Positions 29,682 through 56,818 of a stretch of 64,000 nucleotides of DNA are shown here, piece by piece (position 1 is the first letter of the stretch; each line of letters begins with the position of its first letter). The position numbers and the translations under genes were made by a program. The notes under the pieces are model-generated. The model had not been told where the DNA came from. It saw nothing but the letters and a program-made list of their open reading frames with translations, and ran no database searches. Source of the DNA: Giardia intestinalis (lineage: Eukaryota); NCBI GenBank assembly GCA_000002435.2, contig CM018791.1; one strand, given 5' to 3'.

Positions 29682-29871
29682 TTATTTTTTAGGCACGAGG
29701 TCAAACGCACGGTTCTCCGTCATGCGCAGCCAGTGAGTAGATACGTATGGCTTGTTTTGTGGTCCTTCAATACAAGATCCGTCTCCTTAGTTTTTTATTC
29801 CACGGCTCTCCCTGCGGGATTCCCTGCAGGTCTCCCTGCGCCACTGCTCCGGGAACGGCCACGGAAATAAA

Positions 29872-35200: not shown

Positions 35201-38200
35201 CATGCGCTGTCTCGTGGACCCATCCTGAGGTTACGCCCTTGAGTGACCAGAGGGGACCAAATGCCAGCAGAGCTGGTCAGCGAGGCAAGCCTGCTACAAG
35301 CAGCTTGTCGATCTAGCGAAAGGCATACCTACGGCGAAGAAGAGCATCTTGCACCAGTTGAGTGTGACTTAGGGCTAGGGGCGAATTGGGGGCTGGATCT
35401 GCGAACGACCGCCATTTTGCATCATCCTTGTGGCCATGACTAGGCCATCCAGGCAACACGCCTCGATACGGGCGCAGAGACTTGGAGAGTAGGATGCCCC
35501 CATAGGTTTGTTGCTTGAGTACTAAAAAATCCGGAACAACAATAACGGCTGCTGTCTCCTCGGGATGCCCATCTGTCCATAGGATCGGTCGTTCTAGCTT
35601 TGATCCACTGGACAAGTAGCCTAGGGGTATTCTGTGCCACAGTCTGACACACAGTGCAGTACAGGTACTCGTAAGCACAGCAATACAGGGGAGGGGAGTA
35701 GCATGAGCAGCCGGCGCGTTATGCTCCTGGTTGTGTACTGTAGCTTCCGCCTGTATAAAGCTACACTGAGCTAGCACGTCCTATTACCTTCCGGCGATGA
35801 CTGTCTCTACCACTGCGTTCGCTACAACAAGAGACGTATACGCCTGACAAATTAAGCAGATATTGCGGCATCCTTCTCTAGTAGCGTATACAGGCCCGCA
35901 CAATGCCATAGTAGATAGAGTAGATGTCATTTCATCTAAGGTGTCTACTTTGATGGAAGACAGCGCTCGGTTATACTAGAGATGCTTCTGTTTAAGCATA
36001 AGGTCTTTACGACTGCTTATCCATCAGCTACAGTGACAGCTGTATACCCAAAAGGATCCTGCAGAGCGCTCCGCCATCTTTCAAGGTGAAACATAGATAT
36101 GCGTACAAAGCTAAAAATAGAAATCTGTGCATCAAATGTCATAACCCTAGTGTGATGACTGGCCTAAATCACAATGCACTCGTCAAGAGCTTGTATACTC
36201 GCTTGCATACTCGCTATTAGTATTAAGCAAGAATACAGGGAGATTTGCCTCTGGTTGCGCTCACCTCATAATGTCTAGTCCTCGGTGACACGCTTCAAGG
36301 AGGAAGAATGTCTGCTAGGTGCTTGGAAGACTATCCGTGCATGGCGGCTCCTAGAGAGCCGGTTCGCATGGAGAATGTAAGGGTAATCAACAGATCAGTG
36401 AGATAAAACTGACGCTACAGAGACTAGCTATTAGCTCGGATTACAGCAGGGACACCTGTAATGCCTCTCTGACCTCTAAACCTGGAGAGGTCGTAGGGTC
36501 TGCAGACAAGCTGGACGCTGCTTTTTGATTTTATGCATTTACGGCAGCGTAATATCTATCAAGAGTTGCTTCGTTTGGAGCCGAGGGTATTCACCTTCCC
36601 TTCGTATACAGATGAGGAGCGATTGTAGAGATCTCCACAGGCTGGTACCGGTCGATATGGTCACTATCCACACTGTCTCAGCTGCGTCCTCCCATGCCAG
36701 ATGGACACCAATAATGCTTCTTGGCCACATGACGTCCTACGATGCATCTCCACCTTCGACACAGGTTGCTACACACACTGCGTAGTTTAGATTGCTCATT
36801 AGCCAAGGTGATCTGATCAGCTCTTGTCCTCTGCCCGTCTATCTCGTGCAACCACTACTGATGGCCTTTCCAGATCAGCGAGTGCTTCCATCGGTCCCGC
36901 AAGGGCATACGTCATACAGGCGACCACTACGGACTAGGGTCCTGTCTACCAAAGAAAGGGTCAACCAGTTTACTACGTAGGCATTCATTGTGCGTCTCAT
37001 ATAGTCCGGCAGGTCTTGTGCTCTCCAACATTCCCTCGCAAGCCTCCGACTAAAGCCATGCATATCGTTATTGACAAGCACCTTAGCTTTATTCGACCAC
37101 TTAGGGCGTTAGATCCTTTGCCCTGTACAGTGGGTATGCTCAGCGTGGGAGGTTCACAATCAGCATTAGCTTTCTTGGCTCATTGTTTGAGTAATACTGT
37201 CATTGCTTCTCGATTCAACTAGCAACTCAACTAATGGTCTCAAATGCAAATGATAACTCACCAGTAGGTAGTCAGCAATAACTGTGGCGCATATCTCCGC
37301 CAAGACACGGCTTCCTGAGCAGGGGCATGAAGTGGGCCTCTGCCATTCTACGGTCCTGCTGCTCCCTCGGATAGCAAGGATCGGAACAGCCTAGGCTAAC
37401 ATTGATCGCTTCCGGGTCTCCATCTGTCCTCGTTGTCTGAGGTAGGCTTGACTTCATAAACTGAAAGGTACTGCACTGTACTCTGGATCTGCGAAATTCA
37501 ATTAGGCAGGGCTGCCATTTCGGTGGCTGCACTGATGTAGCTGCGCACCCCGCAGGACCTCCAGAGAGCATTACAGCTCAATGGAACCCTTTATTTGTCT
37601 AATGCAAGTTGTAGCTGTGACCTTATAGGTGCAGGACTTTCTAGAATAACCGGCCAACTACAGAGTTCGCTCATTCATGTAGAGCCAACGAATAGAGAGT
37701 AACATCAGTTTCGTCGATCGTCTACAACGCACATCAGTCAAATCTCACAGGCGAGTAAGCCCCATCCACCCCGCAGCAATAAGCATCAGTAGGTGTTCTT
37801 CATAACGATAAGTAGACAGGCTTTCAACAATCACAGCACCCGCTTTCCTGTTGAAGACCTTCCAGTCACTAGCCTAGGTCAGCTTCCTACAAGATCCGTG
37901 ATGGAATTGTATCAGAAATGCATGCTTATGGGACTCCCAGCTCAAGATGTATGCTGCTGGATCCCACTTTCCATACCAGTCTGTGTACGGCGGTTCTTTT
38001 GGCCCCTAGTGGAGCCATAGAAGATTGCAGGATATGATGTCCTCAGTAGGGCTTTATCTGACTCCTATAGCTATATGACAAGAAGATCCCGGCCTTCTAT
38101 GCATTATTTAACGCATGCTAAGGTGCACTAGTACAACCCCTACAGTGTGGCATGATTCGTGAGTCAAGAGGTAGGACGCTTACGCTGATTGGCATGTCTC

Positions 38201-39289
38201 CTCAGGGCCAACTACAGCTCGGACCAAAGGTCATGAGCGAATGCTATTCGATTCCCTTATCAACAGATGGGGGTCAACTGCTCTAACACCCACAGGAGGT
38301 CACAAAAGGTACTGGACCAGGCATCCGGCCAACGCCTGGCAAACCAGCGCGGTCTCCTTGGATTCTATTCTTTCCTCACAAGCATCCACATGTAGGAAGC
38401 TCTGAGGGCTTAAAGCCTTACACTAGCAGGCTCAAAGTACTGCAAACCCGGCTGCCTCCACTAGCGATGGTAGCGACAGCACTAGGATGATCCAGAGGGG
38501 AGGATAAGAGTCCTGCTCCATCAGTTTAGGGGGTGACACAGTTTGGGCAAGGTTTTCTCCTTGTCTAGATTTAGGAGTGCTGGCCTACGCTCTCTGAAGC
38601 CCAATTGACACCCTGTCATGCGATAGGATATCTTAAAGTATTCATTACAAAAGATCAGAAATAGCGCCATGCACACCCAACAAACCAGAGCGCCTCGTAG
38701 GCTAATCTATACTGATTCACACTTCTACGGGCCTTAGCGATCACTGTAGCCTTTTCTCGGGATCTCGCACAAGACTGTCCTTGAGTGCGGTTCTCTCACG
38801 ACAGCCGGGAGTCGCAGACATAATCTAAGGAAGTGATGATGCAACAGAGGCGGAAACGAGGTCATCGGCGCATGGGGGTCCGTAGGGGCCCGATCCGCGC
38901 AAGGAAGGCACAGGGAGCTGACTCATCAGGGACGTAGAGACCCCAGGAGAGGAGCCAGCAACGAACCCACGGCACAGCAGGGGCACCTGAGCTGTCTTTT
39001 GATTGGCCGCAGGGTAGAGAGGCGGCGAGCGTGTGAAGAAGTTTCACCACCTATTTTTGGATTTTTTGTTTCCCTGCGTGTTGTGCAGGGGGTATGGAGT
39101 TCAGGCCCAGAGAGCTCGCGTGGGCTGTATGCAGTAGATGTACTTAGTATTTGATGAGCTTCTATGTCCTAAGCAGAGGTATCGTAGGAGACGAATCTCT
39201 TTGGATTAATTAGCACAGTATATAGTAAGTCAGGTCTTTAGTCTTAAGTATTTTATTCTTACTCATGCGATAAGCTGAGAAGGACCTCA

Positions 39290-40945
39290 ATGTTGTTGGT
39301 AGCTTTCTACTTTGTGCTGAGTGCTCTTGCAGCAGAATGTAGCGCGGAGGGAACTGCTAAAGATAACTGTGAAGCCAATCATTGCGAAATGGTTGGTGGC
39401 ACTGAAATCTGTACGCAATGTCAAACAGGAAAGGTTCCAATTGATGGGCAATGTGCAGGTGCTACTGATAGCAACACAAAGTGCAAGAATGCTGATGGCG
39501 TTGCTGATGCAGATCAGACGTGCGGAAAATGTCTTCTAGAAACTTTCATGTACAAAGGAGGATGCTATGTAACAACCAAGGCTCCTGGTAATGTGATGTG
39601 CGGAGATGCAGCTGCTGGTAAGTGCACACAGGTTAAGGCTGGGTACTTCCTGCCGCCGGGCGCTGATAATGCGCACGACTCGGTTGTTTCATGCGGGGAT
39701 ACAACGGGCGTGACGCTTACTGACAATAAGAAGTACACGGGCGTGGCCGGGTGTGGTAAGTGTGAGCAACCCGGCGAAGCACAGAATGGCACTCCCAAGG
39801 CCGCCACATGCACTGAGTGCCAGGCGGATAAGTATCTGAAGACAGAATCAGGGACAACCTCTTGTGTTGACGAAGGGAACTGCAATAACGGATTCTTCCC
39901 CACCACTGATGCACAGAGTAATAACAAGAAGGTATGTGCTCTGTGTAGTGAGGCCGATAAGGGTGGCATAGCCGACTGCAAGAAGTGCTCCCTCAAAGCA
40001 ACGTCTGCAAGAGCAGGTCCAATGGTTACGTGCTCTGAGTGTACTAATAATAATCTGAGCCCCCTGAAGGACGAGTGCATGCTCGGTTGCCCTGCTGGCA
40101 CATATGCCAACAACAAGGTGTGCACCCTCTGCCACGAGTCGTGCGCTGGCTGCCAGACCGACGACAAGGAGACCTCCTGTACGGCCTGCTACCCCGGGTC
40201 TGTACTTGAGCATGATGGTGATCTGACTACTGGCAAATGCATCCAGGAGTGCACGGGAAGGTACGCAGAGAACTGCGAAGCTGGCCAGTGCACGGCCGTC
40301 GTTGGGGGATCCAAGTATTGCAGCAGGTGCAAGACAGGGTTCGTTCCGATAAACGGCATGTGCGTCTCTACAACAGCCCGCGCAGCCACAGAGTGTGTGG
40401 CTGGAGAGGGAGTCTGCACTAGTTGCACGGGCGCATACTTCTTAGAATCTGGCGGATGCTATAAAACCGGGGCATTTCCAGGTAACACGTTGTGCATAGC
40501 CGCAGGGGCCAATGGAAAGTGTGCAAACTGCGCCAATGGACAGAATGCAGATCCTCAAACAGGCGCGTGTCCCCCGTGTCCAGCCAACTGCTCAAAGTGC
40601 AGCGGCGATAGCGATGTTAAGACGTGTACTGAGTGCTATTCTGGATACTATCTTGACACTGGAAAAGAGTGTAAAAAGTGTTCTGAAACAAGTGGTAACA
40701 TCCAAGGCGTACCTAATTGCGTGAGCTGTAAAGCTCCTTCGTCTCCTAATGCGCCGACTCCTGTTACCTGCTATGTTAAAACAGACGCCACTAACAACGG
40801 CGATAACGATAACAACGGCGGAAGCACGAACAAGAGCGGCCTCTCCACTGGGGCCATCGCGGGTATCTCCGTTGCTGTGGTGGTTGTTGTGGGTGGTCTC
40901 GTAGGGTTCCTCTGCTGGTGGTTCATATGTAGGGGGAAGGCGTAG
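39290..40945 (+). CDS. vsp: variant-specific surface protein (VSP)
   Basis: Verified ATG. It has a signal peptide MLLVAFYFVLSALAAEC and a 551-aa Cys-rich body with many CxxC and GGCY motifs. The hydrophobic TM segment AIAGISVAVVVVVGGLVGFLCWWFI is followed by the invariant cytoplasmic tail CRGKA. Confidence 0.9.
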   Translation: MLLVAFYFVLSALAAECSAEGTAKDNCEANHCEMVGGTEICTQCQTGKVPIDGQCAGATDSNTKCKNADGVADADQTCGKCLLETFMYKGGCYVTTKAPGNVMCGDAAAGKCTQVKAGYFLPPGADNAHDSVVSCGDTTGVTLTDNKKYTGVAGCGKCEQPGEAQNGTPKAATCTECQADKYLKTESGTTSCVDEGNCNNGFFPTTDAQSNNKKVCALCSEADKGGIADCKKCSLKATSARAGPMVTCSECTNNNLSPLKDECMLGCPAGTYANNKVCTLCHESCAGCQTDDKETSCTACYPGSVLEHDGDLTTGKCIQECTGRYAENCEAGQCTAVVGGSKYCSRCKTGFVPINGMCVSTTARAATECVAGEGVCTSCTGAYFLESGGCYKTGAFPGNTLCIAAGANGKCANCANGQNADPQTGACPPCPANCSKCSGDSDVKTCTECYSGYYLDTGKECKKCSETSGNIQGVPNCVSCKAPSSPNAPTPVTCYVKTDATNNGDNDNNGGSTNKSGLSTGAIAGISVAVVVVVGGLVGFLCWWFICRGKA

Positions 40946-40959
40946 ATGTGTACTTAGGT

Positions 40960-40966
40960 AGTAAAC
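40960..40966 (+). terminator. Giardia polyadenylation signal (AGTRAAY) downstream of VSP
   Basis: agtaaac lies 15 nt after the VSP stop (tag 40943-40945) and matches the known Giardia AGTPuAAPy consensus. Confidence 0.5.
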
Positions 40967-41512
40967 GCGTCACTGTATATGATTTATTACACTATGCTGC
41001 TGGGGCTATCTGAGTGTGGCCCAGAGATCGTGCGGGTAATCATCGCTCCTTCCTGGTCAGTTCAGAGACGACTGTTGGTCATGGATAGCATAACAAGAGG
41101 GTCCTCTCCAGTGATATATTCAGAGTCTGGGCATTCCTCGGCCACTCCATGAGGATATGCTCTGTCTGGATATCCATGCCGATCTGCCTTGGATTCAGGC
41201 CTTCTTGTAGACTCTCTGCTCTACCGGTGGGGCCTCTCCTTGGTCTTCCTTCGTGGTGGGTGAGACTCCGGTCGCTGTCTTTTTTAGATGCCCCCGTCTG
41301 TCAGGGGCTGCCATCGGGGCTCTCCGCTGGCTGGGCCCCTCGGTGTCCGGTCAGCTGTGGCCCGGGCAGCGCTTCTACAGTCGTGGTCACGCAGGTCTCA
41401 GTGGGCCAGCTGGTGGGTGAGGCGGTGGGGGCTGGGCGGTGAGGCTGGGTTGCTGGGGCGGTGAGGCCGGAGGGGACTGGTGGGACCGGGTGGGGTGTTG
41501 TATGTGCCTCTG

Positions 41513-43063
41513 GTCCCTCGATAGACTGGGGTGATCGTAGCTGTGGTGACTGGGGGCTGTCTATCTGTGACTCATCCCTCTGTGTGCTCGTGGTCTGTGA
41601 GTGCCTCCACCCAGACAACCCTCAGGAGCCGTGCACGCCGGGACAGAGAGGATGACCAGGGGGTCAGGCAGCCCTGCCATGAGGGTGCATAGCAACCAGC
41701 CTGAGATGCAGGGCCTGCTCGAGCGATGGTAGTGGCAGACGACTCCCTCTGACAGCGACCCTTGATGACTGCACTGGTCTGCTTTCGAGGCTGAGTGACA
41801 GTGTGCACAGATGGACATGAGTGCAGGAGGACCATCCACACACGGACAGACTGTGCCCCCATACGAGAGTACCAGGCAACCACCCGAGCACCCGAGAGGC
41901 AGTGACAGACACGGGCACCAGAGATCCCCGGCCAGACACATTACTGTGCTCATCCACAGGGGCATCAGAGGACCAGATGGAGTCACCCTCACAATCAGGG
42001 TATGATAGGAAGCCAGAGGACTCAAGCAGCACAGCAGAGCAAAGGGGGCCCAAGGGAGGCACACTCCAGCAGGTGAGCAGTGGCAGAGCCTTGATAGCTG
42101 CCAGGGTCTCCATGACACCCAGGCAGGCACCAGACTCCGAAGACTCGCTGGCCTCCACCGATGATCCGAGGGGGCAGCAACCAGAGGAGTGGGGAGACCT
42201 TAGGATACCACAAGAGGCCCGGCTGTCCAGCAGGCTATGAGGCAGACAGGTGACCTCTGAGCACCATAAGGCACAGAGCCGACAATCAGAGTGATGCCCG
42301 ATCACAGAGATGACCACGAGCACCATCCACCGCACTCTGAGGGGCTGTCAATCATTCACTGCCTCTCATAGCAGACCTCCTTGAGGGCAGTGCAGTGGGT
42401 CCCAGCTCATGCAGGAGGGTGTGTGCCTCCCCTGGCATAGGACACCCCGGCTCTCCCCGAGGGGTCATCAGAGCCACGAGAGGGGTCAAGGTCCCGATAG
42501 ATCACACTGGGAACTCCTGAGGGCACAGCAACTGAGATATGAGTGACCCCCAGCGTGCTCCTCTCTGCATGGTAGAGCATCCTGAGACCAAGGAGGCTCA
42601 CCCCTGCCTACGGACGACACACAGCGCTCCACAACGAGGACCCACCAGGAGCAGCACAGCTGACCACGGGGACAGTGCAGTCACCGGTGCCCCACCATGC
42701 CAGTCTTCTGGGCCATCACACTAGAGGCACGAGAGAACCCATCCCATCCACAGGCTCATCCACACCCCTGCTGGCCCGAGGTGAACTACCGTCGAGGCAC
42801 TGGACAGGGCATGCCAGGGGCTCAGCAGACCCGCACAGAGCAACAGGAGAGGCTGCGATGGCCTGCCTCAACCCTCACGCACCAGCCAGACAGAGAGGCA
42901 GTACTGCCTGAGATAAGGGGCCAAGGGAGGCGCTCAGTCAAGGGGACACGACACGATCGTCGGTGCCTCTGTCTCAGAGAGTGCAACGAAGGCTGGGGAT
43001 CAGACACAGCCACCTTAGCAAACAGAACGGGGATCACCCACCACCCCACTGACCCACCAGACC
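41513..43063. other. unique central spacer of the palindrome; low-complexity, strand-asymmetric (C/A-rich on + strand)
   Basis: The region between the inner repeat boundaries has no mirrored ORFs. Its composition is dominated by cac/cag/cca runs, and the ORFs within it are low-complexity and unconvincing. Confidence 0.6.
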
Positions 43064-43610
43064 CAGAGGCACATACAACACCCCACCCGGTCCCACCAGT
43101 CCCCTCCGGCCTCACCGCCCCAGCAACCCAGCCTCACCGCCCAGCCCCCACCGCCTCACCCACCAGCTGGTCGCTATAAGACCCAAGTGACCGCGACTGT
43201 AAAGCGCTGACCCAGATCCACAGCTGACCGGACACCGAGGAGCCCAGCCAGCGGAGAGCCCGGTGGCAGCCCCTGACAGACGGGGCATCTAAAAAAGGAC
43301 GGCGACCAGAGCTTCACCCACCACGAAGGAAGACCAAGGAGAGGCCCCACCGGTAGAGCAGAGAGTCTACAAGAAGGCCTGAATCCAAGGCAGATCGGCA
43401 TGGATATCCAGACAGAGCATATCCTCATGGAGTGGCCGAGGAATGCCCAGACTCTGAATATATCACTGGAGAGGACCCTCTTGTTATGCTATCCATGACC
43501 AACAGTCGTCTCTGAACTGACCAGGAAGGAGCGATGATTACCCGCACGATCTCTGGGCCACACTCAGATAGCCCCAGCAGCATAGTGTAATAAATCATAT
43601 ACAGTGACGC

Positions 43611-43617
43611 GTTTACT
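43611..43617 (-). terminator. polyadenylation signal (AGTAAAC) of right-arm VSP copy
   Basis: Mirror of 40960..40966; gtttact on + equals agtaaac on -. Confidence 0.5.
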
Positions 43618-43631
43618 ACCTAAGTACACAT

Positions 43632-45287
43632 CTACGCCTTCCCCCTACATATGAACCACCAGCAGAGGAACCCTACGAGACCACCCACAACAACCACCAC
43701 AGCAACGGAGATACCCGCGATGGCCCCAGTGGAGAGGCCGCTCTTGTTCGTGCTTCCGCCGTTGTTATCGTTATCGCCGTTGTTAGTGGCGTCTGTTTTA
43801 ACATAGCAGGTAACAGGAGTCGGCGCATTAGGAGACGAAGGAGCTTTACAGCTCACGCAATTAGGTACGCCTTGGATGTTACCACTTGTTTCAGAACACT
43901 TTTTACACTCTTTTCCAGTGTCAAGATAGTATCCAGAATAGCACTCAGTACACGTCTTAACATCGCTATCGCCGCTGCACTTTGAGCAGTTGGCTGGACA
44001 CGGGGGACACGCGCCTGTTTGAGGATCTGCATTCTGTCCATTGGCGCAGTTTGCACACTTTCCATTGGCCCCTGCGGCTATGCACAACGTGTTACCTGGA
44101 AATGCCCCGGTTTTATAGCATCCGCCAGATTCTAAGAAGTATGCGCCCGTGCAACTAGTGCAGACTCCCTCTCCAGCCACACACTCTGTGGCTGCGCGGG
44201 CTGTTGTAGAGACGCACATGCCGTTTATCGGAACGAACCCTGTCTTGCACCTGCTGCAATACTTGGATCCCCCAACGACGGCCGTGCACTGGCCAGCTTC
44301 GCAGTTCTCTGCGTACCTTCCCGTGCACTCCTGGATGCATTTGCCAGTAGTCAGATCACCATCATGCTCAAGTACAGACCCGGGGTAGCAGGCCGTACAG
44401 GAGGTCTCCTTGTCGTCGGTCTGGCAGCCAGCGCACGACTCGTGGCAGAGGGTGCACACCTTGTTGTTGGCATATGTGCCAGCAGGGCAACCGAGCATGC
44501 ACTCGTCCTTCAGGGGGCTCAGATTATTATTAGTACACTCAGAGCACGTAACCATTGGACCTGCTCTTGCAGACGTTGCTTTGAGGGAGCACTTCTTGCA
44601 GTCGGCTATGCCACCCTTATCGGCCTCACTACACAGAGCACATACCTTCTTGTTATTACTCTGTGCATCAGTGGTGGGGAAGAATCCGTTATTGCAGTTC
44701 CCTTCGTCAACACAAGAGGTTGTCCCTGATTCTGTCTTCAGATACTTATCCGCCTGGCACTCAGTGCATGTGGCGGCCTTGGGAGTGCCATTCTGTGCTT
44801 CGCCGGGTTGCTCACACTTACCACACCCGGCCACGCCCGTGTACTTCTTATTGTCAGTAAGCGTCACGCCCGTTGTATCCCCGCATGAAACAACCGAGTC
44901 GTGCGCATTATCAGCGCCCGGCGGCAGGAAGTACCCAGCCTTAACCTGTGTGCACTTACCAGCAGCTGCATCTCCGCACATCACATTACCAGGAGCCTTG
45001 GTTGTTACATAGCATCCTCCTTTGTACATGAAAGTTTCTAGAAGACATTTTCCGCACGTCTGATCTGCATCAGCAACGCCATCAGCATTCTTGCACTTTG
45101 TGTTGCTATCAGTAGCACCTGCACATTGCCCATCAATTGGAACCTTTCCTGTTTGACATTGCGTACAGATTTCAGTGCCACCAACCATTTCGCAATGATT
45201 GGCTTCACAGTTATCTTTAGCAGTTCCCTCCGCGCTACATTCTGCTGCAAGAGCACTCAGCACAAAGTAGAAAGCTACCAACAACAT
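43632..45287 (-). CDS. vsp: variant-specific surface protein (VSP), identical second copy
   Basis: A 551-aa protein identical to 39290..40945, with ATG verified (cat at 45285-45287 on +) and the CRGKA tail. Confidence 0.9.
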   Translation of the reverse strand: MLLVAFYFVLSALAAECSAEGTAKDNCEANHCEMVGGTEICTQCQTGKVPIDGQCAGATDSNTKCKNADGVADADQTCGKCLLETFMYKGGCYVTTKAPGNVMCGDAAAGKCTQVKAGYFLPPGADNAHDSVVSCGDTTGVTLTDNKKYTGVAGCGKCEQPGEAQNGTPKAATCTECQADKYLKTESGTTSCVDEGNCNNGFFPTTDAQSNNKKVCALCSEADKGGIADCKKCSLKATSARAGPMVTCSECTNNNLSPLKDECMLGCPAGTYANNKVCTLCHESCAGCQTDDKETSCTACYPGSVLEHDGDLTTGKCIQECTGRYAENCEAGQCTAVVGGSKYCSRCKTGFVPINGMCVSTTARAATECVAGEGVCTSCTGAYFLESGGCYKTGAFPGNTLCIAAGANGKCANCANGQNADPQTGACPPCPANCSKCSGDSDVKTCTECYSGYYLDTGKECKKCSETSGNIQGVPNCVSCKAPSSPNAPTPVTCYVKTDATNNGDNDNNGGSTNKSGLSTGAIAGISVAVVVVVGGLVGFLCWWFICRGKA

Positions 45288-48200
45288 TGAGGTCCTTCTC
45301 AGCTTATCGCATGAGTAAGAATAAAATACTTAAGACTAAAGACCTGACTTACTATATACTGTGCTAATTAATCCAAAGAGATTCGTCTCCTACGATACCT
45401 CTGCTTAGGACATAGAAGCTCATCAAATACTAAGTACATCTACTGCATACAGCCCACGCGAGCTCTCTGGGCCTGAACTCCATACCCCCTGCACAACACG
45501 CAGGGAAACAAAAAATCCAAAAATAGGTGGTGAAACTTCTTCACACGCTCGCCGCCTCTCTACCCTGCGGCCAATCAAAAGACAGCTCAGGTGCCCCTGC
45601 TGTGCCGTGGGTTCGTTGCTGGCTCCTCTCCTGGGGTCTCTACGTCCCTGATGAGTCAGCTCCCTGTGCCTTCCTTGCGCGGATCGGGCCCCTACGGACC
45701 CCCATGCGCCGATGACCTCGTTTCCGCCTCTGTTGCATCATCACTTCCTTAGATTATGTCTGCGACTCCCGGCTGTCGTGAGAGAACCGCACTCAAGGAC
45801 AGTCTTGTGCGAGATCCCGAGAAAAGGCTACAGTGATCGCTAAGGCCCGTAGAAGTGTGAATCAGTATAGATTAGCCTACGAGGCGCTCTGGTTTGTTGG
45901 GTGTGCATGGCGCTATTTCTGATCTTTTGTAATGAATACTTTAAGATATCCTATCGCATGACAGGGTGTCAATTGGGCTTCAGAGAGCGTAGGCCAGCAC
46001 TCCTAAATCTAGACAAGGAGAAAACCTTGCCCAAACTGTGTCACCCCCTAAACTGATGGAGCAGGACTCTTATCCTCCCCTCTGGATCATCCTAGTGCTG
46101 TCGCTACCATCGCTAGTGGAGGCAGCCGGGTTTGCAGTACTTTGAGCCTGCTAGTGTAAGGCTTTAAGCCCTCAGAGCTTCCTACATGTGGATGCTTGTG
46201 AGGAAAGAATAGAATCCAAGGAGACCGCGCTGGTTTGCCAGGCGTTGGCCGGATGCCTGGTCCAGTACCTTTTGTGACCTCCTGTGGGTGTTAGAGCAGT
46301 TGACCCCCATCTGTTGATAAGGGAATCGAATAGCATTCGCTCATGACCTTTGGTCCGAGCTGTAGTTGGCCCTGAGGAGACATGCCAATCAGCGTAAGCG
46401 TCCTACCTCTTGACTCACGAATCATGCCACACTGTAGGGGTTGTACTAGTGCACCTTAGCATGCGTTAAATAATGCATAGAAGGCCGGGATCTTCTTGTC
46501 ATATAGCTATAGGAGTCAGATAAAGCCCTACTGAGGACATCATATCCTGCAATCTTCTATGGCTCCACTAGGGGCCAAAAGAACCGCCGTACACAGACTG
46601 GTATGGAAAGTGGGATCCAGCAGCATACATCTTGAGCTGGGAGTCCCATAAGCATGCATTTCTGATACAATTCCATCACGGATCTTGTAGGAAGCTGACC
46701 TAGGCTAGTGACTGGAAGGTCTTCAACAGGAAAGCGGGTGCTGTGATTGTTGAAAGCCTGTCTACTTATCGTTATGAAGAACACCTACTGATGCTTATTG
46801 CTGCGGGGTGGATGGGGCTTACTCGCCTGTGAGATTTGACTGATGTGCGTTGTAGACGATCGACGAAACTGATGTTACTCTCTATTCGTTGGCTCTACAT
46901 GAATGAGCGAACTCTGTAGTTGGCCGGTTATTCTAGAAAGTCCTGCACCTATAAGGTCACAGCTACAACTTGCATTAGACAAATAAAGGGTTCCATTGAG
47001 CTGTAATGCTCTCTGGAGGTCCTGCGGGGTGCGCAGCTACATCAGTGCAGCCACCGAAATGGCAGCCCTGCCTAATTGAATTTCGCAGATCCAGAGTACA
47101 GTGCAGTACCTTTCAGTTTATGAAGTCAAGCCTACCTCAGACAACGAGGACAGATGGAGACCCGGAAGCGATCAATGTTAGCCTAGGCTGTTCCGATCCT
47201 TGCTATCCGAGGGAGCAGCAGGACCGTAGAATGGCAGAGGCCCACTTCATGCCCCTGCTCAGGAAGCCGTGTCTTGGCGGAGATATGCGCCACAGTTATT
47301 GCTGACTACCTACTGGTGAGTTATCATTTGCATTTGAGACCATTAGTTGAGTTGCTAGTTGAATCGAGAAGCAATGACAGTATTACTCAAACAATGAGCC
47401 AAGAAAGCTAATGCTGATTGTGAACCTCCCACGCTGAGCATACCCACTGTACAGGGCAAAGGATCTAACGCCCTAAGTGGTCGAATAAAGCTAAGGTGCT
47501 TGTCAATAACGATATGCATGGCTTTAGTCGGAGGCTTGCGAGGGAATGTTGGAGAGCACAAGACCTGCCGGACTATATGAGACGCACAATGAATGCCTAC
47601 GTAGTAAACTGGTTGACCCTTTCTTTGGTAGACAGGACCCTAGTCCGTAGTGGTCGCCTGTATGACGTATGCCCTTGCGGGACCGATGGAAGCACTCGCT
47701 GATCTGGAAAGGCCATCAGTAGTGGTTGCACGAGATAGACGGGCAGAGGACAAGAGCTGATCAGATCACCTTGGCTAATGAGCAATCTAAACTACGCAGT
47801 GTGTGTAGCAACCTGTGTCGAAGGTGGAGATGCATCGTAGGACGTCATGTGGCCAAGAAGCATTATTGGTGTCCATCTGGCATGGGAGGACGCAGCTGAG
47901 ACAGTGTGGATAGTGACCATATCGACCGGTACCAGCCTGTGGAGATCTCTACAATCGCTCCTCATCTGTATACGAAGGGAAGGTGAATACCCTCGGCTCC
48001 AAACGAAGCAACTCTTGATAGATATTACGCTGCCGTAAATGCATAAAATCAAAAAGCAGCGTCCAGCTTGTCTGCAGACCCTACGACCTCTCCAGGTTTA
48101 GAGGTCAGAGAGGCATTACAGGTGTCCCTGCTGTAATCCGAGCTAATAGCTAGTCTCTGTAGCGTCAGTTTTATCTCACTGATCTGTTGATTACCCTTAC

Positions 48201-51200
48201 ATTCTCCATGCGAACCGGCTCTCTAGGAGCCGCCATGCACGGATAGTCTTCCAAGCACCTAGCAGACATTCTTCCTCCTTGAAGCGTGTCACCGAGGACT
48301 AGACATTATGAGGTGAGCGCAACCAGAGGCAAATCTCCCTGTATTCTTGCTTAATACTAATAGCGAGTATGCAAGCGAGTATACAAGCTCTTGACGAGTG
48401 CATTGTGATTTAGGCCAGTCATCACACTAGGGTTATGACATTTGATGCACAGATTTCTATTTTTAGCTTTGTACGCATATCTATGTTTCACCTTGAAAGA
48501 TGGCGGAGCGCTCTGCAGGATCCTTTTGGGTATACAGCTGTCACTGTAGCTGATGGATAAGCAGTCGTAAAGACCTTATGCTTAAACAGAAGCATCTCTA
48601 GTATAACCGAGCGCTGTCTTCCATCAAAGTAGACACCTTAGATGAAATGACATCTACTCTATCTACTATGGCATTGTGCGGGCCTGTATACGCTACTAGA
48701 GAAGGATGCCGCAATATCTGCTTAATTTGTCAGGCGTATACGTCTCTTGTTGTAGCGAACGCAGTGGTAGAGACAGTCATCGCCGGAAGGTAATAGGACG
48801 TGCTAGCTCAGTGTAGCTTTATACAGGCGGAAGCTACAGTACACAACCAGGAGCATAACGCGCCGGCTGCTCATGCTACTCCCCTCCCCTGTATTGCTGT
48901 GCTTACGAGTACCTGTACTGCACTGTGTGTCAGACTGTGGCACAGAATACCCCTAGGCTACTTGTCCAGTGGATCAAAGCTAGAACGACCGATCCTATGG
49001 ACAGATGGGCATCCCGAGGAGACAGCAGCCGTTATTGTTGTTCCGGATTTTTTAGTACTCAAGCAACAAACCTATGGGGGCATCCTACTCTCCAAGTCTC
49101 TGCGCCCGTATCGAGGCGTGTTGCCTGGATGGCCTAGTCATGGCCACAAGGATGATGCAAAATGGCGGTCGTTCGCAGATCCAGCCCCCAATTCGCCCCT
49201 AGCCCTAAGTCACACTCAACTGGTGCAAGATGCTCTTCTTCGCCGTAGGTATGCCTTTCGCTAGATCGACAAGCTGCTTGTAGCAGGCTTGCCTCGCTGA
49301 CCAGCTCTGCTGGCATTTGGTCCCCTCTGGTCACTCAAGGGCGTAACCTCAGGATGGGTCCACGAGACAGCGCATGCTGATGGCAGAAGACAGCAAAGCT
49401 CTTCTCAAATATCTCGACCTATCAACTAGTGCGGTCCCAAAGCACACTGTGGGTTTTGACGGACACGCAAGTACGGATCCAGACACTTTGAGATTCTAAG
49501 ATTACTCAGCAAGGACAACACAATTCACCCTGCTTCATCTGAGAGGTCCAAGCCCCAGCTCTTCAGAAGCCCAGCATCAGTGCTCAGCTGGCTCATACGC
49601 TCTGCTGTACCTTGTTGAAAACCACATCGACGGCTCCAATTCGGCGGTTACTCTGGACTCACCAGCCATTACAGTCGTGCCACCATCAGGGCTAAGTTTC
49701 CCGCTTCACCTGTGGTCTGTTACAAAGGCATAATTCGTGACCGGATGCAAAGGGCTTGATCCATTCGGTACGCTATAGCTACCGGTGTACTTCACTAGGC
49801 TCACTGGCTCTGCCAGCATCTTCGAAGGTAGAGACGCGCCACCATCACAGATCACACAGCCCCCTGCACATCCTGGAAGGGCTCTTGTGTTGTGCAACGT
49901 CAGATCCTGCCTGTCTGATACAGAACACATGGTACTGGACGGCCAGAGAGAGAATAGTGGGCGCTTGCACCCCACACCGAACCAGTCTGACTGCACTTGG
50001 GCCATAGTTCTTTGACCCCGCTGCCATAGACAGTGAAGGACGCATCCTTCTGGAGATGGGATCTCTCGAGGGTTGGCTCAGGGTTCAGTCTGAGCCCGGA
50101 ACTCTAGGTATGGAGTGCACCACGCAATGAGGACAGTAGTAGCAGGGACACTGTTTGGACCAGGTGGCCTTCTCACATTCCTCATTGCACGTGCCTGCAT
50201 CCCATGCGGTCCACTCCTTCGATATGTAACAGTTGTGACCCAGATGGTTAGACTTTGGACCCACGTGCTATTGCACCTGTTGTAGCAGCAAAGAGGACGA
50301 GTCACTTGCTTGTAGGCTTTGTCTACCTTCAGGCCTATCCAGATCTGCTACTGTGCTAACACTACTGGTACCACGCAGCCTATGTGATGGTCATGTCCCC
50401 TTCATGCCATTCTTGATACCAAGTCCGATAGGAGCATCCAACAGAATATCCCTGGCGTTGTGCAGTCTTCATATGATGATCGCGTTAGACTCACTGCGCA
50501 CCCACCGTTGCAGTAGTTGAATTGCTGGGCTCGGGCACTGCTGGATACTTTTACTGATAGACGATGCCAGAAAAAGCAAAGATAAAAGGCCTCAAAACCC
50601 CCTGTCCGTGAATGGACTCGTTATGTGCAACGTGCCTACCTCTATCGTGTCATGTAAGACAGTAGGATTTTGCTGGCACAGTACATTGATACAGTGATGA
50701 TGCAGAGAAGGCAGCTCTGACTTACATAGCGATAGAAAGCCCGGTGATATAGATAGCGACATTATGTGATGGCGGACCCTAGCCGATAGGCCATGGGGAT
50801 ACAGAGCCCTTGCAACAAAGCTGTTCTTCGCATGAAATAGTAGAGTAGCATGATGCACCACGGGAGAGAGTCCCGCTTCCTCGTTCTGTCTGTTACACTA
50901 TAGCCCAAGCATCGAACTCGCTGATGGCTCCTTATTCATTCCCCTATGAAGCCTCTGGGCACCTGTTTAATCATACTACTTAGCCCTACATAAGAATAAA
51001 ATCCACACCTAGCACTAACAATTGAATACCTCATTCTGCCATAACATTTCCGGTGTACTGATTCCAATCTCGAGCAGCTGAGTGGTTGGATGCATCCTTG
51101 TCAGGGGTAGTGTAGGCATGAAAGACTAGACCCCAACGACAGGTTTGCACTTTAACTTCTCTTGTTTACTCCTTGGTGGCGCCCTATCTCTCCACTTAGG

Positions 51201-52290
51201 CGTGTGTTCTGAGATTGCCATAAGGCAGACAATGGGATCTTGCAGGACTAAAAGCACCGATGCCATCTACCTCCAGAATCTGGTAATCTGGGCACCCACG
51301 TCGCAGTTCTGGCAAACAACACCTTGTTCCTATACCATCCGCTCTGACCATGTGCTTCTCTTCCCTGAGCCATTCTCGATGACAATATTCATATTGACAC
51401 GGAGAGCTGTTCTGTCATGCAAAGTGGTTTTGCTTCGAGCCGGTTGTATGGCAATCCAGTTGTTCCTCATCCTCTCACAGTTTTCTCTGCAGCAGTCCCC
51501 TAGTGATAACGCTGTACGGCTCGAATCTCTAACAAGGTGCCTTACTAATATGTCGCTCTTCTGTATACGTTCGGCGCCCAGCTGGCCCACGCTGTCTCCG
51601 TAGCTTAGTTGGATGCCTCCATGCACAGGGATTCGTCTGGCAAAAGTGGCTGTGCCGTATAATGGATTGTGTTGATCTGCATAATCGGAAGTGCATGCCT
51701 TTTGTTCGTATGCTGCTGAGGGCGCTGGCTGCAATGCGTGTCGAGAATAGATTGCTTTGGATCGGATTACCCTGTGCCTTTTGCGCTCTAGGGGCTAGGA
51801 TCTTACTCCCCCAATACTAGTGCCGGACTCCAGTTGGATTATAGAAAAGGGGCTCTGTCCAGCTCTGGCCTTCTTAGTACGAAGATGCTAAGGATGCCTC
51901 TAGGATCCTCTCTGCTGCGGTTCTATGTGCGCCTACACTGGTCTGCAGTGGTAAGACGGTCCCTATCCTAGTTTTGGCCTCTCGCTATGTCGAGTACAGA
52001 GAACTTGGGACGCCTCTGGGTTTCGCTCCTACAGCAGAATGAAACAAGGGCACGGGGCTCTAGGCTTTGCTAGATACTTGTCTGGATGAAGGAGTGAGCG
52101 CTAATGTCAGAGGTTTTGGCTGGCTGGTGTGTTGGTGGCATGCTCGGCATAAACTGGTGTCGGCCTGTTCTTCTCGGAGCCTCGGTAAAGTCGGTCGGCT
52201 ATGAAGGGAAGGAGCTTATGACAGTCTGTCCAGTGTAACCGACAACATCTTTGCTTAGGATAGATTTACCATCTAGTTCATCAGAGTGTG

Positions 52291-54520
52291 TCAATGAGTG
52301 TCATCTAGTACCGTGAAAGTCGGCGTTACCGTGCACTCCATCTTCTGAGAGCATAGCTTTAGGTAGTATTGTTTGTCTCGGAGCTCCTGCATCCTCTCAG
52401 CACAGCTATCTAGATAGATCGTGTTGAGTCCTGCCACTCCCTCGACTCCGTCAAGTGCACAAACCTCCTTTCCTGCCTGCATTAGCGTGACCGAGAACCT
52501 TCTACGAGGCAAGGGAAACACAAACCCGTGCCTATGGATAGTGAAGCTCAGAGGATCCCGCACAGTAATGGCGTCTGGAACGTCTCTGACCAGGTATCTG
52601 CTCGCCTTGACCTCAAAGTCATCCGAAGTGTTCGTGAACATGGGACTGTTGGAGCGCATGCGGACGAAGTAGTTAGGGCCAGAGGGGACAGAGGCCGGAA
52701 GAGTGTCGGCATAGAGCCCCGTGTTAGGGGCAGAGCGGGTGAACGTGTGGCGCAGGTAGCTTTTCGATCCGACCTTTTCGTACAAAAGGATCGTCATCTC
52801 AGTGCTGGCCGTTAGGTTGCTGGTCCATCGGATTGTAACTGCACCGCCGGGGACCCAGACACTCTGCGTAGACGGCTCCGTAATAAGCAGGGGCACGTCG
52901 CCAATAGGCTCAGGTTCGGGCTCAGGTTCGGGATCTGGGTCGGGCTGTGGTTCCGGGTCGGGCACGGGATCCTTCTTATCAGACGGGGCCGGGAGATCAT
53001 CTGCAGGGTAGCCGTACGACGTGACATGCAGCGGTCCCACATCGGCGTACGCGAAGGGGGACGTCTCTGAGCGCAGTCGGAGGTACGCAGCTGAGCAGTT
53101 GCCATAGGAAGACGGCAGGCGGACCTCGATGCTTCCCGAGGGAGGCAGGCCAGCAGCGATGACATCCAGCAGTCGCTCTCCGCAATACGCCTGGAGAAGC
53201 AGCTTTGCACTCGTCCCCGTTGAGGCGTACGAAATCTGCAGGCCCTCGGCCAACGCAGTCACCTGTGCGCCGGCGACCGGGTTGGATATCGTGATGACTG
53301 CTTCATCGTTGTGCTTCTTCTCTATTGTGAGCACTGCGCTTGCGGATAGGACGGGAACGGTGTCGGACGTGGTCAGGGTCAGCGCATGCCTGCCAGCGCT
53401 CATGCTCGACGGGGCCACGCAGGACTGCGCCCCCTTACTGAGCTCCATCAGCACAGACGCGCCGTCCATCAACTTGCAGGGCACCTGGAGCGGTGCAGCG
53501 AACCGGAGTGTGACGCTCTCTCCCTCCTGTCCCTGATAGCTAGTCTTGTCGAATGCCAGCGTGAAGTAGGACGCCAACGAGAAGCGCGCAGACGTTGCGT
53601 CTCCAGTGCTGGTTGTCAGGTAGTATTGCCCTGCAGACGTGTCTCGAGGTATGGTAACGCGGGCGGTGCCACTAGAGGTCGTCAGCTTAACGAGCGACGT
53701 CACCGCTCCTGCTTCTGACTTCAGCTGGAGCTCTGCAGGGGTCGCTACCTCCTTGTACGGTATTGCAATCTCGTATCCAGCAATGTACGTTTTGGCCGCC
53801 TCTACAGTGATTGTGCCGTTTTGGGGCTCCGGCTTAGGAGTCGTGTCTATAGGCAGCGCTGAACCGGGCCACGTCTCGATCTTGAGCTCGTTGGACCCGC
53901 GCTTGATCTTGAAGTAGCCTTGGTCGCCCCAATTGGTGCCGTACGTGTTCGCACAGTCCCAGTAGGGTACACCGTTCTCCTCGCCCCACCCGACTATCAT
54001 CACGGCGTGGCCTCCCCCCAGCTTCGTATTGGGGCCGGAGCTGTAGATGCCCTTCTTGTCCTTGGAGGGGAAGTCGTTGGCCAGGTACATGGAGACCGCA
54101 ATGGGCCCGTTCTGGTATATGTCGCGCATCATCGCGTCCACGCCGCTGAGCCTGTAGGGCGCCTTGTTCTTAATGGTGCGGTCCTTGGGGCGCTTATCCT
54201 TGCAGACGGTCTTGCACGTCTCCGTGGGGTAGGGATACGTCCGGTTCCAGTAGTCCTCGCAGGTGTCGTACACCATGCCCGTCGTCTCTCCGAACTTCAG
54301 CGACGCAAGGGAATTGCCGCCACGGCACCCGTTGTTCTGGATGTTCAGATACTTGGTGTGGTCGCACGTGACGAGGTCCTCGAGGCTCACAAGCCTGCTG
54401 TCGTTGAGCTGGAGGCACCGCCGGGCAGTGACCATCTCCACCGCCGCCGCCGCGTAGCAGCAGCCGCACGAGCCCTGGTTTATGATCTGGATGCACCGGT
54501 GGCCCCGGTAGGTGAAGTTG
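52291..54520 (-). pseudogene. 5'-truncated copy of cathepsin B-like protease (no ATG, no signal/pro region)
   Basis: Identical to the left copy from ...NFTYRGHRCIQ onward. The palindrome boundary at 54520 replaces the first 62 codons with unrelated sequence. The track 'M' at 54642 is TTG, and an in-frame stop (tga) lies 5 codons upstream. The first in-frame ATG comes only after the catalytic Cys. Confidence 0.6.
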
Positions 54521-54622
54521 CCAGCTCTGGACAAGTTATGATGTGGGCCACCAGGTCTCTTCAGTGCCTGATGATGACATCCTGTTAGCACAAAGTAAAT
54601 CTGCAAGTCCAAGTGGAGATAT

Positions 54623-56818
54623 ATGAAAATGGAAATTTTCAACGCACAGAGCTGGTTTCAGGCTGCCCGTGAAGGAGATGTAACTTTGCTTTCGGATCAC
54701 ATCAGCTCATATGCTAATCTGCAAGATGACGAGGGGAACACGGCTCTGATGTACGCCGCAAGAGAAGGCAAGATCCAGGCTGTTGACCTGCTCGCTTCCC
54801 TAGAAGCGGGGAAACTTAACAATGCCGATGAGTCGGCGATTATCCTGGCTATTGCGCGGGATTTCTACCCAGTATGTGCGCGTTTGTTCGAGCTAGAGTC
54901 TAAGATGATCCTCCCCAACAACAAAACCCTTCTCATGATTTCTGCGGAGGCAGGAGCTGTGAATTGCACACGCTTTTTAGCGCGATACTATGATGCTGAA
55001 GCAGACAGCTCTGGGAGGACCGCATTGGAGTATGCAGCTGCACGCGGCTCAGCAGAAATAATTCAGATTCTCTTGAATAGAGACACGCGTCTGGGAACTA
55101 GAGAACTTGCGAGAGCCATTGCGGTGACAAGACACGTAGGTCACACAGATCTTGCAGATCTTCTGCAGCTCCACCTTACACAACTGCAGGCCGTTGAAGG
55201 CACTTGTCAGAAGTGTGCACGGCTTCAAGCATACATCACTGCGCTAGAGGAAGAGAACAGAAGAATGTCAGCGAGCAATGCACAATGTATGCAAACAATT
55301 GCAAAGAAGGACCACGAAATAGAACAACTCAAATCCACAGTCAACAATTTACTACTGGACACAGACATGCGAAAAATCTTTGCTATAGGGGACGAGGCCC
55401 ATGTAACCGAACGACAGGGTGTTCACCGCAAGCGCAGAAAAACACTGAACACAAAATCTATGAGGGCAGACCTTTTCAACATTGCTGACGTTGAGATAAA
55501 TGTTGCGGCATTTCTAGACTACATGGCCTACGTGACAAAATTTTACAGATTTTCAGATCTTGCTACTACAGTTAATTCGCTTATGGGGAAATCCCACCGA
55601 GATCACTTACTAGAGAGAAACCCCGAGGATGCAGTGCCTAATCTGGAAAGTGAGATATCCAAAGAGATCGTACGCACGCTTGCCAAGATGCGGGGCTCAG
55701 CATTCAACATCTGCACTGGCATGAAAAACCTGGTGTCTCTCATTGATAGTCAAGTGCAGCTGCAGGACCTGATTTCCAGTGACATACTGGAGCAGTCTCC
55801 TCTGATAGAAGCAGTCATCTCACATGACTTGTCTAAGCTAAGAGAGAACCTCCAATATGTAGGTCTCCGTGATTCCAAGGGAAGAACCGCGCTGATGCAC
55901 GCCAGTGTTTGCGGGACCCGGGACTCTATACTTGTGCTTGCTCCGCTGGAGGCAGGACTCCGTGACTTAGATGGAAAACTCGCCATAGATCACTGTCTGG
56001 AACACAATCGCCTGGATGAGGCCGCGATTGTCCTTCCATACGACATGCCTGAGTACCGAGAACTACCAATAGCGTCATCAGAATTCAACAAGACGCCTCT
56101 CATGTGCGCAGCAGAGGCAGGAAGGCTTCTGGACTGCTTTTGCTACCTGCAGCTAGGGCTAGCACAGCAGCGAGATTACCGACAGTATACAGCGTTGATG
56201 TTTGCCGTAGAGGCTGGTCAGGAAAGCACGGTGAGAATGCTCCTTCGTCAGGAATCAACTTTACGTGACTGCGAAGGACAAACGGCCCTGTACCACGCTG
56301 CCAGTCATGGGCATGCTAGCTGCGTCAAATTGCTAGCCAGTGCAGAGGCCAGGGCCCAACGGCATGAGACAAAATGGACTGCGCTGATGGTGGCTGCTTA
56401 TAATGGTCATGAGGAGTGTGTTCAGGAACTGCTAAGTTACGAAGCCGGAATGCGTGATGTTAATTCCTGCACTGCCCTTATGCTGGCAGCGCAGCGGGGT
56501 CACTTAAATAGCGTGAAGGCACTTCTCAGTGTGGAGGCCCGGAAAACAACAACCAGCGCATACTACCGAGGGGAGGGCTGCACTGCTTTAATGATGGCAG
56601 CATTCTACGGACATAAGGAGTGTGTGAAGGTGCTTCTACCCGCGGAGTACGACTGTGAGAAGCAGTGCATAGACTCAGAGACAAAAAGTACAGCGCTGGA
56701 CTACGCCTGTATCCCGGACAAGGGCGTTTCTCAGGAGACCAAGGAAGAAATCATTAACATCATAGAAACATTTCTTCACGCAGGATCTGAATTCAGCGGC
56801 GCCACTTCCGGATCTTAG
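54623..56818 (+). CDS. ankyrin-repeat protein (21.1-like) with central coiled coil
   Basis: Verified ATG, ~100 bp outside the palindrome boundary. Ankyrin motifs GNTALMYAAREGK, GRTALEYAAARGS, GRTALMHASVCG, YTALMFAVEAGQ, WTALMVAAYNGH and CTALMLAAQRGH, plus a coiled coil LQAYITALEEENRRM. Confidence 0.7.
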   Translation: MKMEIFNAQSWFQAAREGDVTLLSDHISSYANLQDDEGNTALMYAAREGKIQAVDLLASLEAGKLNNADESAIILAIARDFYPVCARLFELESKMILPNNKTLLMISAEAGAVNCTRFLARYYDAEADSSGRTALEYAAARGSAEIIQILLNRDTRLGTRELARAIAVTRHVGHTDLADLLQLHLTQLQAVEGTCQKCARLQAYITALEEENRRMSASNAQCMQTIAKKDHEIEQLKSTVNNLLLDTDMRKIFAIGDEAHVTERQGVHRKRRKTLNTKSMRADLFNIADVEINVAAFLDYMAYVTKFYRFSDLATTVNSLMGKSHRDHLLERNPEDAVPNLESEISKEIVRTLAKMRGSAFNICTGMKNLVSLIDSQVQLQDLISSDILEQSPLIEAVISHDLSKLRENLQYVGLRDSKGRTALMHASVCGTRDSILVLAPLEAGLRDLDGKLAIDHCLEHNRLDEAAIVLPYDMPEYRELPIASSEFNKTPLMCAAEAGRLLDCFCYLQLGLAQQRDYRQYTALMFAVEAGQESTVRMLLRQESTLRDCEGQTALYHAASHGHASCVKLLASAEARAQRHETKWTALMVAAYNGHEECVQELLSYEAGMRDVNSCTALMLAAQRGHLNSVKALLSVEARKTTTSAYYRGEGCTALMMAAFYGHKECVKVLLPAEYDCEKQCIDSETKSTALDYACIPDKGVSQETKEEIINIIETFLHAGSEFSGATSGS

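Follow-up and report, generated by a model that had tools for sequence, protein, structure and literature searches.

A 64,000-nt stretch of chromosome 3 of Giardia intestinalis WB (assemblage A; contig CM018791.1), called the window here, contains a palindrome centred on two identical VSP genes, and the outer boundary of its right arm cuts through a copy of a cathepsin-B-like protease gene. The copy at the left end is complete (804 aa), whereas the copy at the right end begins only at residue 63 (N63). This right copy is most likely a non-functional, 5'-truncated duplicate whose reading frame has been kept intact by homogenisation between the arms. A preliminary description of the window, made from its letters, had proposed that the palindrome boundary beheads the right copy and leaves a pseudogene-like fragment without a start codon; the gene is indeed broken after codon 62 and identical from N63 on, and sequence, synteny and a junction recovered in three assemblies agree with that proposal.

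The truncated right copy and the complete left gene

The boundary at 54520 splits the 804-aa gene between codons 62 and 63. The right open reading frame (ORF; 52291-54642, minus strand, 783 aa) reproduces the left protein from N63 (NFTYRGHRCIQ) to the stop codon, and ahead of N63 it carries 41 unrelated codons, most of which are contributed by a unique 102-nt spacer separating the palindrome from a neighbouring gene for an ankyrin-repeat protein. Its listed start is a TTG, and it is limited upstream by an in-frame TGA at 54658-54660, just as the preliminary description had it. The further claim that no in-frame ATG precedes the catalytic cysteine was borne out by a complete list of minus-strand ATGs between 54700 and 54400, which holds only two (54580 and 54435): the former is out of frame, and the latter encodes M91, the first in-frame methionine, which lies past Cys83. 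The surroundings of these codons differ as well, with 20% A+T in the 30 nt upstream of M91 (G+C-rich coding DNA), 43% upstream of the left ATG (ending in AAATAAA), and 63% upstream of the ankyrin ATG. That last ATG (54623) lies 103 nt from the palindrome boundary, in line with the roughly 100 bp first estimated. Sequence specific to the right copy can be read across the junction (for example, ...RPGGPHHNLSRAGNFTYR).

The left gene has what a pre-pro-enzyme needs, namely a start codon, a signal peptide, and a short pro-region. As the preliminary description had noted, its ATG is directly preceded by an A-rich leader (GGAAATAAA), its N-terminus is hydrophobic, and 62 residues stand ahead of N63. 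The protein is identical to XP_001710319.1 / KAE8303242.1 (WB) and matches Pfam Peptidase_C1 (PF00112) over residues 61-278 (E=4.9e-40; 138 bits against a cut-off of 20.7), with a second Pfam match, to Kre9_KNH, at residues 611-699. Its best matches among solved structures are cathepsin B, and the Gln, Cys, His, and Asn residues align with those of cathepsin B chain 9s60_A (QGSCGCCY/QGSCGSCW, GGHAVMIVGWG/GGHAIRILGWG, and ANTYGTNWGD/ANSWNLDWGD, respectively for the left protein and 9s60_A), the catalytic cysteine being C83 within QGSCGCCY. The His-His pair of the cathepsin B occluding loop is absent from the left protein, the loop region being gapped in the alignment with 9s60_A; the label "cathepsin-B-like" rests on best-hit similarity, not on the occluding loop.

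The right copy has no ATG, signal peptide, or propeptide, while the residues from N63 onward are still encoded. Papain-family enzymes generally need the propeptide for folding. Both promoter and initiation codon have been lost, as is characteristic of an unprocessed 5'-truncated pseudogene. In the 2020 reference, the right copy is nonetheless a protein-coding gene (KAE8303245.1 / XP_001704385.2), a "cathepsin B-like cysteine proteinase" of 714 aa that starts at M91 (coding sequence [CDS] 54435-52291); the earlier annotation at this position was only a 168-aa "hypothetical protein GL50803_119224."

A third, full-length cathepsin paralogue (P0024) lies on another WB chromosome, chromosome 5. Its context is deduced from a related contig (L011), which is 95.9% identical to the window over 29783-35140 and carries different genes upstream (adaptin and aminotransferase).

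Table 1. Features of the palindrome and its right flank, by position in the window (a dot marks features given without strand; L005, L012, and L013 are short-read contigs, and P15 represents assemblage E)
Feature	Position	Strand	Basis or remark
Full-length cathepsin-B-like gene, 804 aa, ancestral copy	29872..32286	+	ORF, Pfam, synteny
Left arm, perfectly identical part	30057..41263	+	Arm-to-arm comparison
ORF-poor 7-kb stretch, left arm	32287..39289	.	Mirror is 45288-52290
VSP gene, left pair member, 551 aa, C-terminal CRGKA	39290..40945	+	Pfam VSP, E=1.3e-75
Inner imperfect end, left arm	41264..41513	.	Inter-arm alignment
Unique central spacer, 1549 nt, ~61% G+C	41514..43062	.	Between the arms
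Inner imperfect end, right arm	43063..43313	.	Inter-arm alignment
Right arm, perfectly identical part	43314..54520	-	Arm-to-arm comparison
VSP gene, right pair member, 551 aa	43632..45287	-	ORF list
5'-truncated right copy, N63 to stop, identical to left gene	52291..54519	-	Translation, arm identity
M91, first in-frame ATG of the right copy, 8 codons past Cys83	54433..54435	-	ATG listing
Unique 102-nt spacer, ankyrin promoter region	54521..54622	.	Conserved in L005, L012, and L013; 78% in P15
Out-of-frame ATG opening a 14-codon ORF	54578..54580	-	Sole ATG between ankyrin promoter and M91
Ankyrin-repeat protein gene (protein 21.1 / ARP-1), 731 aa	54623..56818	+	ORF, Pfam
In-frame TGA, upstream limit of the right ORF	54658..54660	-	Sequence

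Identity of the arms and age of the right junction

The inverted repeat was first found with arms at 30057-41318 and 43259-54520 and a reported identity of "100%," which is a rounded value. Direct comparison of 30057-41263 with the reverse complement of 43314-54520 gives 0 mismatches in 11,207 nt; the repeat's 12 mismatches all fall within the innermost 55 nt of the arms. A perfect inverted repeat of 11 kb cannot have arisen by chance. The two VSP ORFs are identical and convergent (tail-to-tail), with 2686 bp between them, and in size, spacing, orientation, and chromosome they match the pair GL50803_136003/136004. That pair appears in Table 2 of Xu et al. 2020 (PMC7000408) under chromosome 3, with 551 aa and a spacing of 2686 bp, and in Table 5 of Adam et al. 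2010 (PMC2996952) as a tail-to-tail pair with a spacing of 2687 bp and a 3' divergence of "318 (572)" nt. In the window, perfect identity of the arms continues for 318 nt past the VSP stop codon (to 41263), and the imperfect part of the inner arm reaches 568 nt past it (41513). The attributes of an identical inverted VSP pair are thus all present: the Pfam VSP match, the CRGKA tail, identical ORFs, spacing within 2-4 kb, and abrupt divergence points.

Inward of the perfect arms lies a 142-nt block (41264-41405) with 16 substitutions (~11.5%) and 7 gap columns between the arms; beyond it, 108 nt are again perfect and made up mostly of a 22-nt, G-rich tandem repeat (GCTGGGGGGTGAGGCGGGGGG-like). 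This repeat adjoins the unique centre of the palindrome and is a candidate structure-forming or fragile site. No Pfam match was obtained for the ORFs of the centre (0 matches), and an Rfam scan of the window returned no non-coding RNA.

Each arm also contains a 7-kb stretch (32287-39289 and 45288-52290) in which no ORF longer than 154 aa was found, the genome being otherwise ~81% coding. Conservation of this stretch is only ~70% with P15 and ~89% with an assemblage-A-like contig (L010). Gene-poor regions around VSPs were remarked on by Xu et al. (PMC7000408), who also put the duplicated share of the genome at 6.9% and described duplications of several genes reaching 20 kb. In their Table 2, all of the convergent WB VSP pairs (12/12) are spaced by 2526-2813 bp, a uniformity suggestive of a spacer element, or a mode of palindrome formation, that they share.

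The preliminary description had proposed comparison with other assemblages as a way of telling which arm is ancestral, and that comparison gives an answer. The gene order epimerase, 853 aa, NUDIX, ParA, 381 aa, 110 aa, IF4E, cathepsin is common to the left side of the window, to assemblage B (L006; GCA_001543975.1), and to assemblage E (L007; P15). Because the adjacency of IF4E and cathepsin is conserved in assemblages B and E, the left copy occupies the ancestral position, which makes the right copy the derived one.

The right junction (...CATAACTTGTCCAGAGCTGG continuing at the boundary into CAACTTCACCTAC...) recurs base for base in three independent short-read (Logan) assemblies, from SRR19788705 (L013; 99.95% identity to the window), ERR10960912 (L012; 97.6%), and SRR18693200 (L005; 97.9%), and the ankyrin gene beside it is also present in the L005 and L013 contigs. 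Its assembly from short reads in three samples means that the junction did not arise as an artefact of long-read assembly. Within the unique flank, the divergence of L005 from WB is 2.3% across the ankyrin gene and 1.6% across the helicase region, with 5 differing positions in the 102-nt spacer; since the junction is common to lineages 1.6-2.3% diverged in their flank, it is older than ~2% divergence. Independent evolution of the arms since the junction formed would predict more than 200 differences in 11,207 positions, where none is seen. The right junction is therefore real and inherited, and it is older than the identity of the arms implies.

An old junction, arms without a single difference, a diverged inner block, and the identity of the corresponding copies in P15, taken together, point to arms that evolve in concert, through gene conversion from one to the other. 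The P15 evidence is limited in length, its left copy (L007) and ankyrin-side copy (L008) being 100% identical over only 626 comparable nt; both are 14% diverged from WB, and their outer boundary differs from that of WB. A 142-nt diverged block enclosed by identical stretches is what would be expected of an old palindrome homogenised in tracts. The pattern itself is a direct observation, and we infer from it that gene conversion between the arms is the homogenising process. On the same reasoning, the right reading frame probably looks intact only because the arms have been homogenised, so that it has not decayed independently of the left gene. The preliminary description had recognised neither this explanation of the intact-looking ORF nor the palindrome as the known VSP pair 136003/136004.

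Some further variation was seen among the related sequences. At ~2062 in L013, a 1-nt indel in a G run truncates the right-arm ORF at 201 aa, and this may reflect either a true inter-arm difference or an error in assembling short reads. Several copies from other assemblage-A-like samples (P0025, P0027, P0029, P0031, P0034, and L012) have in common a C-terminal frameshift ending in ...GSGRTQHDLSR; its carriers include P0029, a right-junction copy, as well as full-type copies whose context is chromosome-5-like, which is consistent with sequence exchange among all three paralogous loci. Another protein (P0033, 804 aa, encoded on a Logan contig) differs from the WB left copy solely in its chromosome-5-type N-terminus (MTVLL...PLREGDD) and could represent either a conversion tract or a chimeric contig. 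The locus encoding P0034 (L010; ENA ERZ18534468) was considered as a further right-junction copy and rejected, its DNA alignment showing an upstream region of the left or chromosome-5 type. Positions 1-345 of that contig hold a full-type cathepsin with a frameshifting 5-nt insertion (CGATC) in the pro-region, and there too the gene caller started at M91.

Outside the palindrome, the ankyrin gene (plus strand) and a DEAD-box helicase gene (minus strand) overlap by 26 nt at their 3' ends (56793-56818), as they do in P15, assemblage B, and L005. One short-read contig from a sample identical to WB in sequence (L004; SRR3596234) begins 2 nt before the ankyrin ATG (54621), not at the boundary ~100 nt further on.

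Origin of the fragment and competing explanations

The most likely account of the locus begins with an inverted duplication, centred on the VSP pair, that copied ~11.2 kb comprising the VSP gene, the 7-kb gene-poor region, and most of the cathepsin gene. The duplicated segment ended after cathepsin codon 62, and the inverted copy was joined to the intergenic DNA ahead of the ankyrin gene, at a distance of 103 nt from it. The right copy thereby lost promoter, initiator region, ATG, signal peptide, and pro-region, to become a passenger fragment riding with the VSP palindrome and kept intact by homogenisation between the arms. The only source of transcripts would then be the divergent side of the ankyrin promoter, and RNA from there would meet the out-of-frame 14-codon ORF before reaching M91, giving a product with neither signal peptide nor catalytic cysteine. 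Lack of function is the most likely condition of the right copy.

Long perfect palindromes are a known class of long-read artefact, and a chimeric fold-back read might in principle have produced both the palindrome and its truncated copy. The odds of this are negligible: a fold-back read would not leave a unique centre of 1.5 kb, the VSP pair with its divergence points of 318 nt and 572 nt was already present in the Sanger assembly (PMC2996952), and the independent short-read contigs that assemble the right junction in three samples refute it. A very recent duplication, which would equally show zero differences in 11,207 nt, would make gene conversion superfluous. We consider it very improbable, given that lineages with a unique flank 2% diverged from that of WB share the identical junction, that the inner 142-nt block is ~11.5% diverged between arms, and that an inverted copy stands beside the same ankyrin gene in assemblage E.

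Several observations weigh against regarding the right copy as an inert passenger preserved by homogenisation. Polishing of long-read assemblies may erase a few real differences, and the zero may be slightly overstated for that reason, yet a divergence of 2% could not be hidden in this way. The right ORF is free of disabling mutations, the reference annotates it as a protein-coding gene, and neither the literature searched (by identifier and accessions) nor the transcriptome supplements checked contained GL50803_119224. The ankyrin promoter, moreover, lies only ~100 nt away and could fire divergently, giving a sterile or poorly translated transcript; according to PMC1885649, bidirectional activity is inherent to Giardia promoters and gives rise to sterile transcripts. 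The annotation, the intact ORF, and the nearby promoter would favour an expressed right copy, in which a divergent mRNA from the A+T-rich promoter region 100 nt upstream is translated from M91 into the annotated 714-aa protein (KAE8303245.1), a cytosolic pseudo-protease without signal peptide or catalytic Cys that keeps the Kre9/KNH-like C-terminal region. Such expression seems improbable to us. The integrity of the ORF is fully accounted for by homogenisation of the arms, the P15 counterpart is cut at ~codon 431 (so that no particular product is conserved), and M91 is preceded by G+C-rich coding sequence and by the out-of-frame 14-codon ORF. Giardia mRNAs have very short leaders and are poorly translated from distant AUGs, which counts against M91 as a start as well.

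The outer boundary is a different one in assemblage E. P15 is arranged like the WB right arm (ankyrin, then a cathepsin fragment, ~7 kb in which no genes are called, and a VSP), and its homology to the WB flank stops at window position 54524, within 4 nt of the WB boundary. The next 363 nt of P15 match neither the window nor any fetched locus, and its cathepsin sequence begins at the equivalent of window position 53411 (~codon 431), the point of abrupt divergence between its left and right copies. In assemblage B (L009), no cathepsin sequence occurs within 619 nt upstream of the ankyrin gene, and this stretch has no detectable similarity to the 363-nt spacer of P15 or to the window; since it matches neither, assemblage B leaves the ancestral state of the right junction unsettled. 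Palindromes may have arisen independently in assemblages A and E (the comparison with P15 reaches from the ankyrin gene to the VSP). Alternatively, there may have been one ancestral palindrome whose boundary later moved; the simpler version of such a move starts from a P15-like ancestor, the right arm being extended by copying from the left arm, perhaps through break-induced copying from the intact arm. A more ambitious and rather doubtful extension of this idea would have the 136003/136004 palindrome predate the A/E split and remain homogenised while its outer boundary moved (~codon 431 in E, 63 in A), with the truncated copy serving as a standing repair template that guards the functional protease gene, and the VSP too, against decay in a tetraploid that is largely clonal.

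The assemblage E breakpoint also bears on the coincidence of the WB boundary with a domain edge. Pfam places the start of Peptidase_C1 at residue 61, the boundary falls after residue 62, and LPTNFTYR aligns with the N-terminus of mature cathepsin B, which puts the boundary 2-3 codons inside the mature domain. A random breakpoint would fall within +/-3 codons of this landmark in ~1% of cases (7/804 codons), or in ~5%, by rough estimate, if any of some five landmarks were counted. Because the breakpoint in assemblage E lies elsewhere (~codon 431), coincidence is the best reading of why the WB boundary agrees with where the mature domain starts. The preliminary description had placed the cut exactly at the start of the catalytic domain; this is true of the position, but the match appears to be coincidental.

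Meaning of the locus and its place among known systems

Much of this is already known: the palindrome is listed as a VSP inverted pair, the fragment is annotated (though not marked as truncated), and such duplicates are ordinary. The novelty is modest and lies in the outer boundary of the pair with its passenger gene, in a junction common to diverged assemblage A lineages although the arms have remained identical, and in a different boundary at the same locus in assemblage E. In practical terms, the 714-aa reference entry, which has neither active-site cysteine nor targeting signal, should be counted as a gene fragment in tallies of the protease family. Short RNA-seq reads and peptides cannot tell the right copy and the real gene apart; the sole diagnostic stretch is the 102-nt junction. 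More broadly, the locus offers a clean and datable case for regarding inverted VSP pairs as long-lived palindromes, the arms of which can exceed 11 kb, carry non-VSP genes, and apparently stay identical through homogenisation. This bears on how Giardia maintains and diversifies its surface-antigen loci.

Among Giardia cathepsin-B-like proteases (clan CA, C1A), the left gene shares the Peptidase_C1 domain, the Gln/Cys/His/Asn residues, the signal peptide, and the short pro-region; it differs in a C-terminal extension of ~500 residues with a Kre9/KNH-like domain, in GCCY for GSCW, and in lacking the occluding-loop His-His. The right copy retains the catalytic residues in frame, yet has no start upstream of them. 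Like 5'-truncated duplicates at the edges of segmental duplications, it ends at a breakpoint and is without promoter, start codon, or N-terminal targeting sequence. Unlike ordinary duplicates of this kind, it is free of disabling mutations, since homogenisation keeps it in step with its parent, and the reference lists it as a gene.

The palindrome itself belongs with the identical inverted VSP pairs of Giardia (PMC2996952, PMC7000408), with their abrupt divergence points. The outer (5') divergence point of tail-to-tail pairs could not be determined in PMC2996952. In the present pair it is found 9.2 kb upstream of where the VSP begins and falls in a non-VSP gene, so that the palindrome carries a truncated protease gene along. 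There is also a more distant parallel in the primate Y chromosome. Large palindromes of primate Y chromosomes are kept identical by arm-to-arm gene conversion. The present palindrome differs from those in its smaller arms (11 kb), in its setting in a tetraploid, binucleate protist, in preserving a fragment and not a functional copy, and in that conversion is here deduced from the pattern. It resembles them in its near-identical arms, its unique spacer, a junction common to diverged lineages, and copies that, over the stretch compared, group by genome and not by position.

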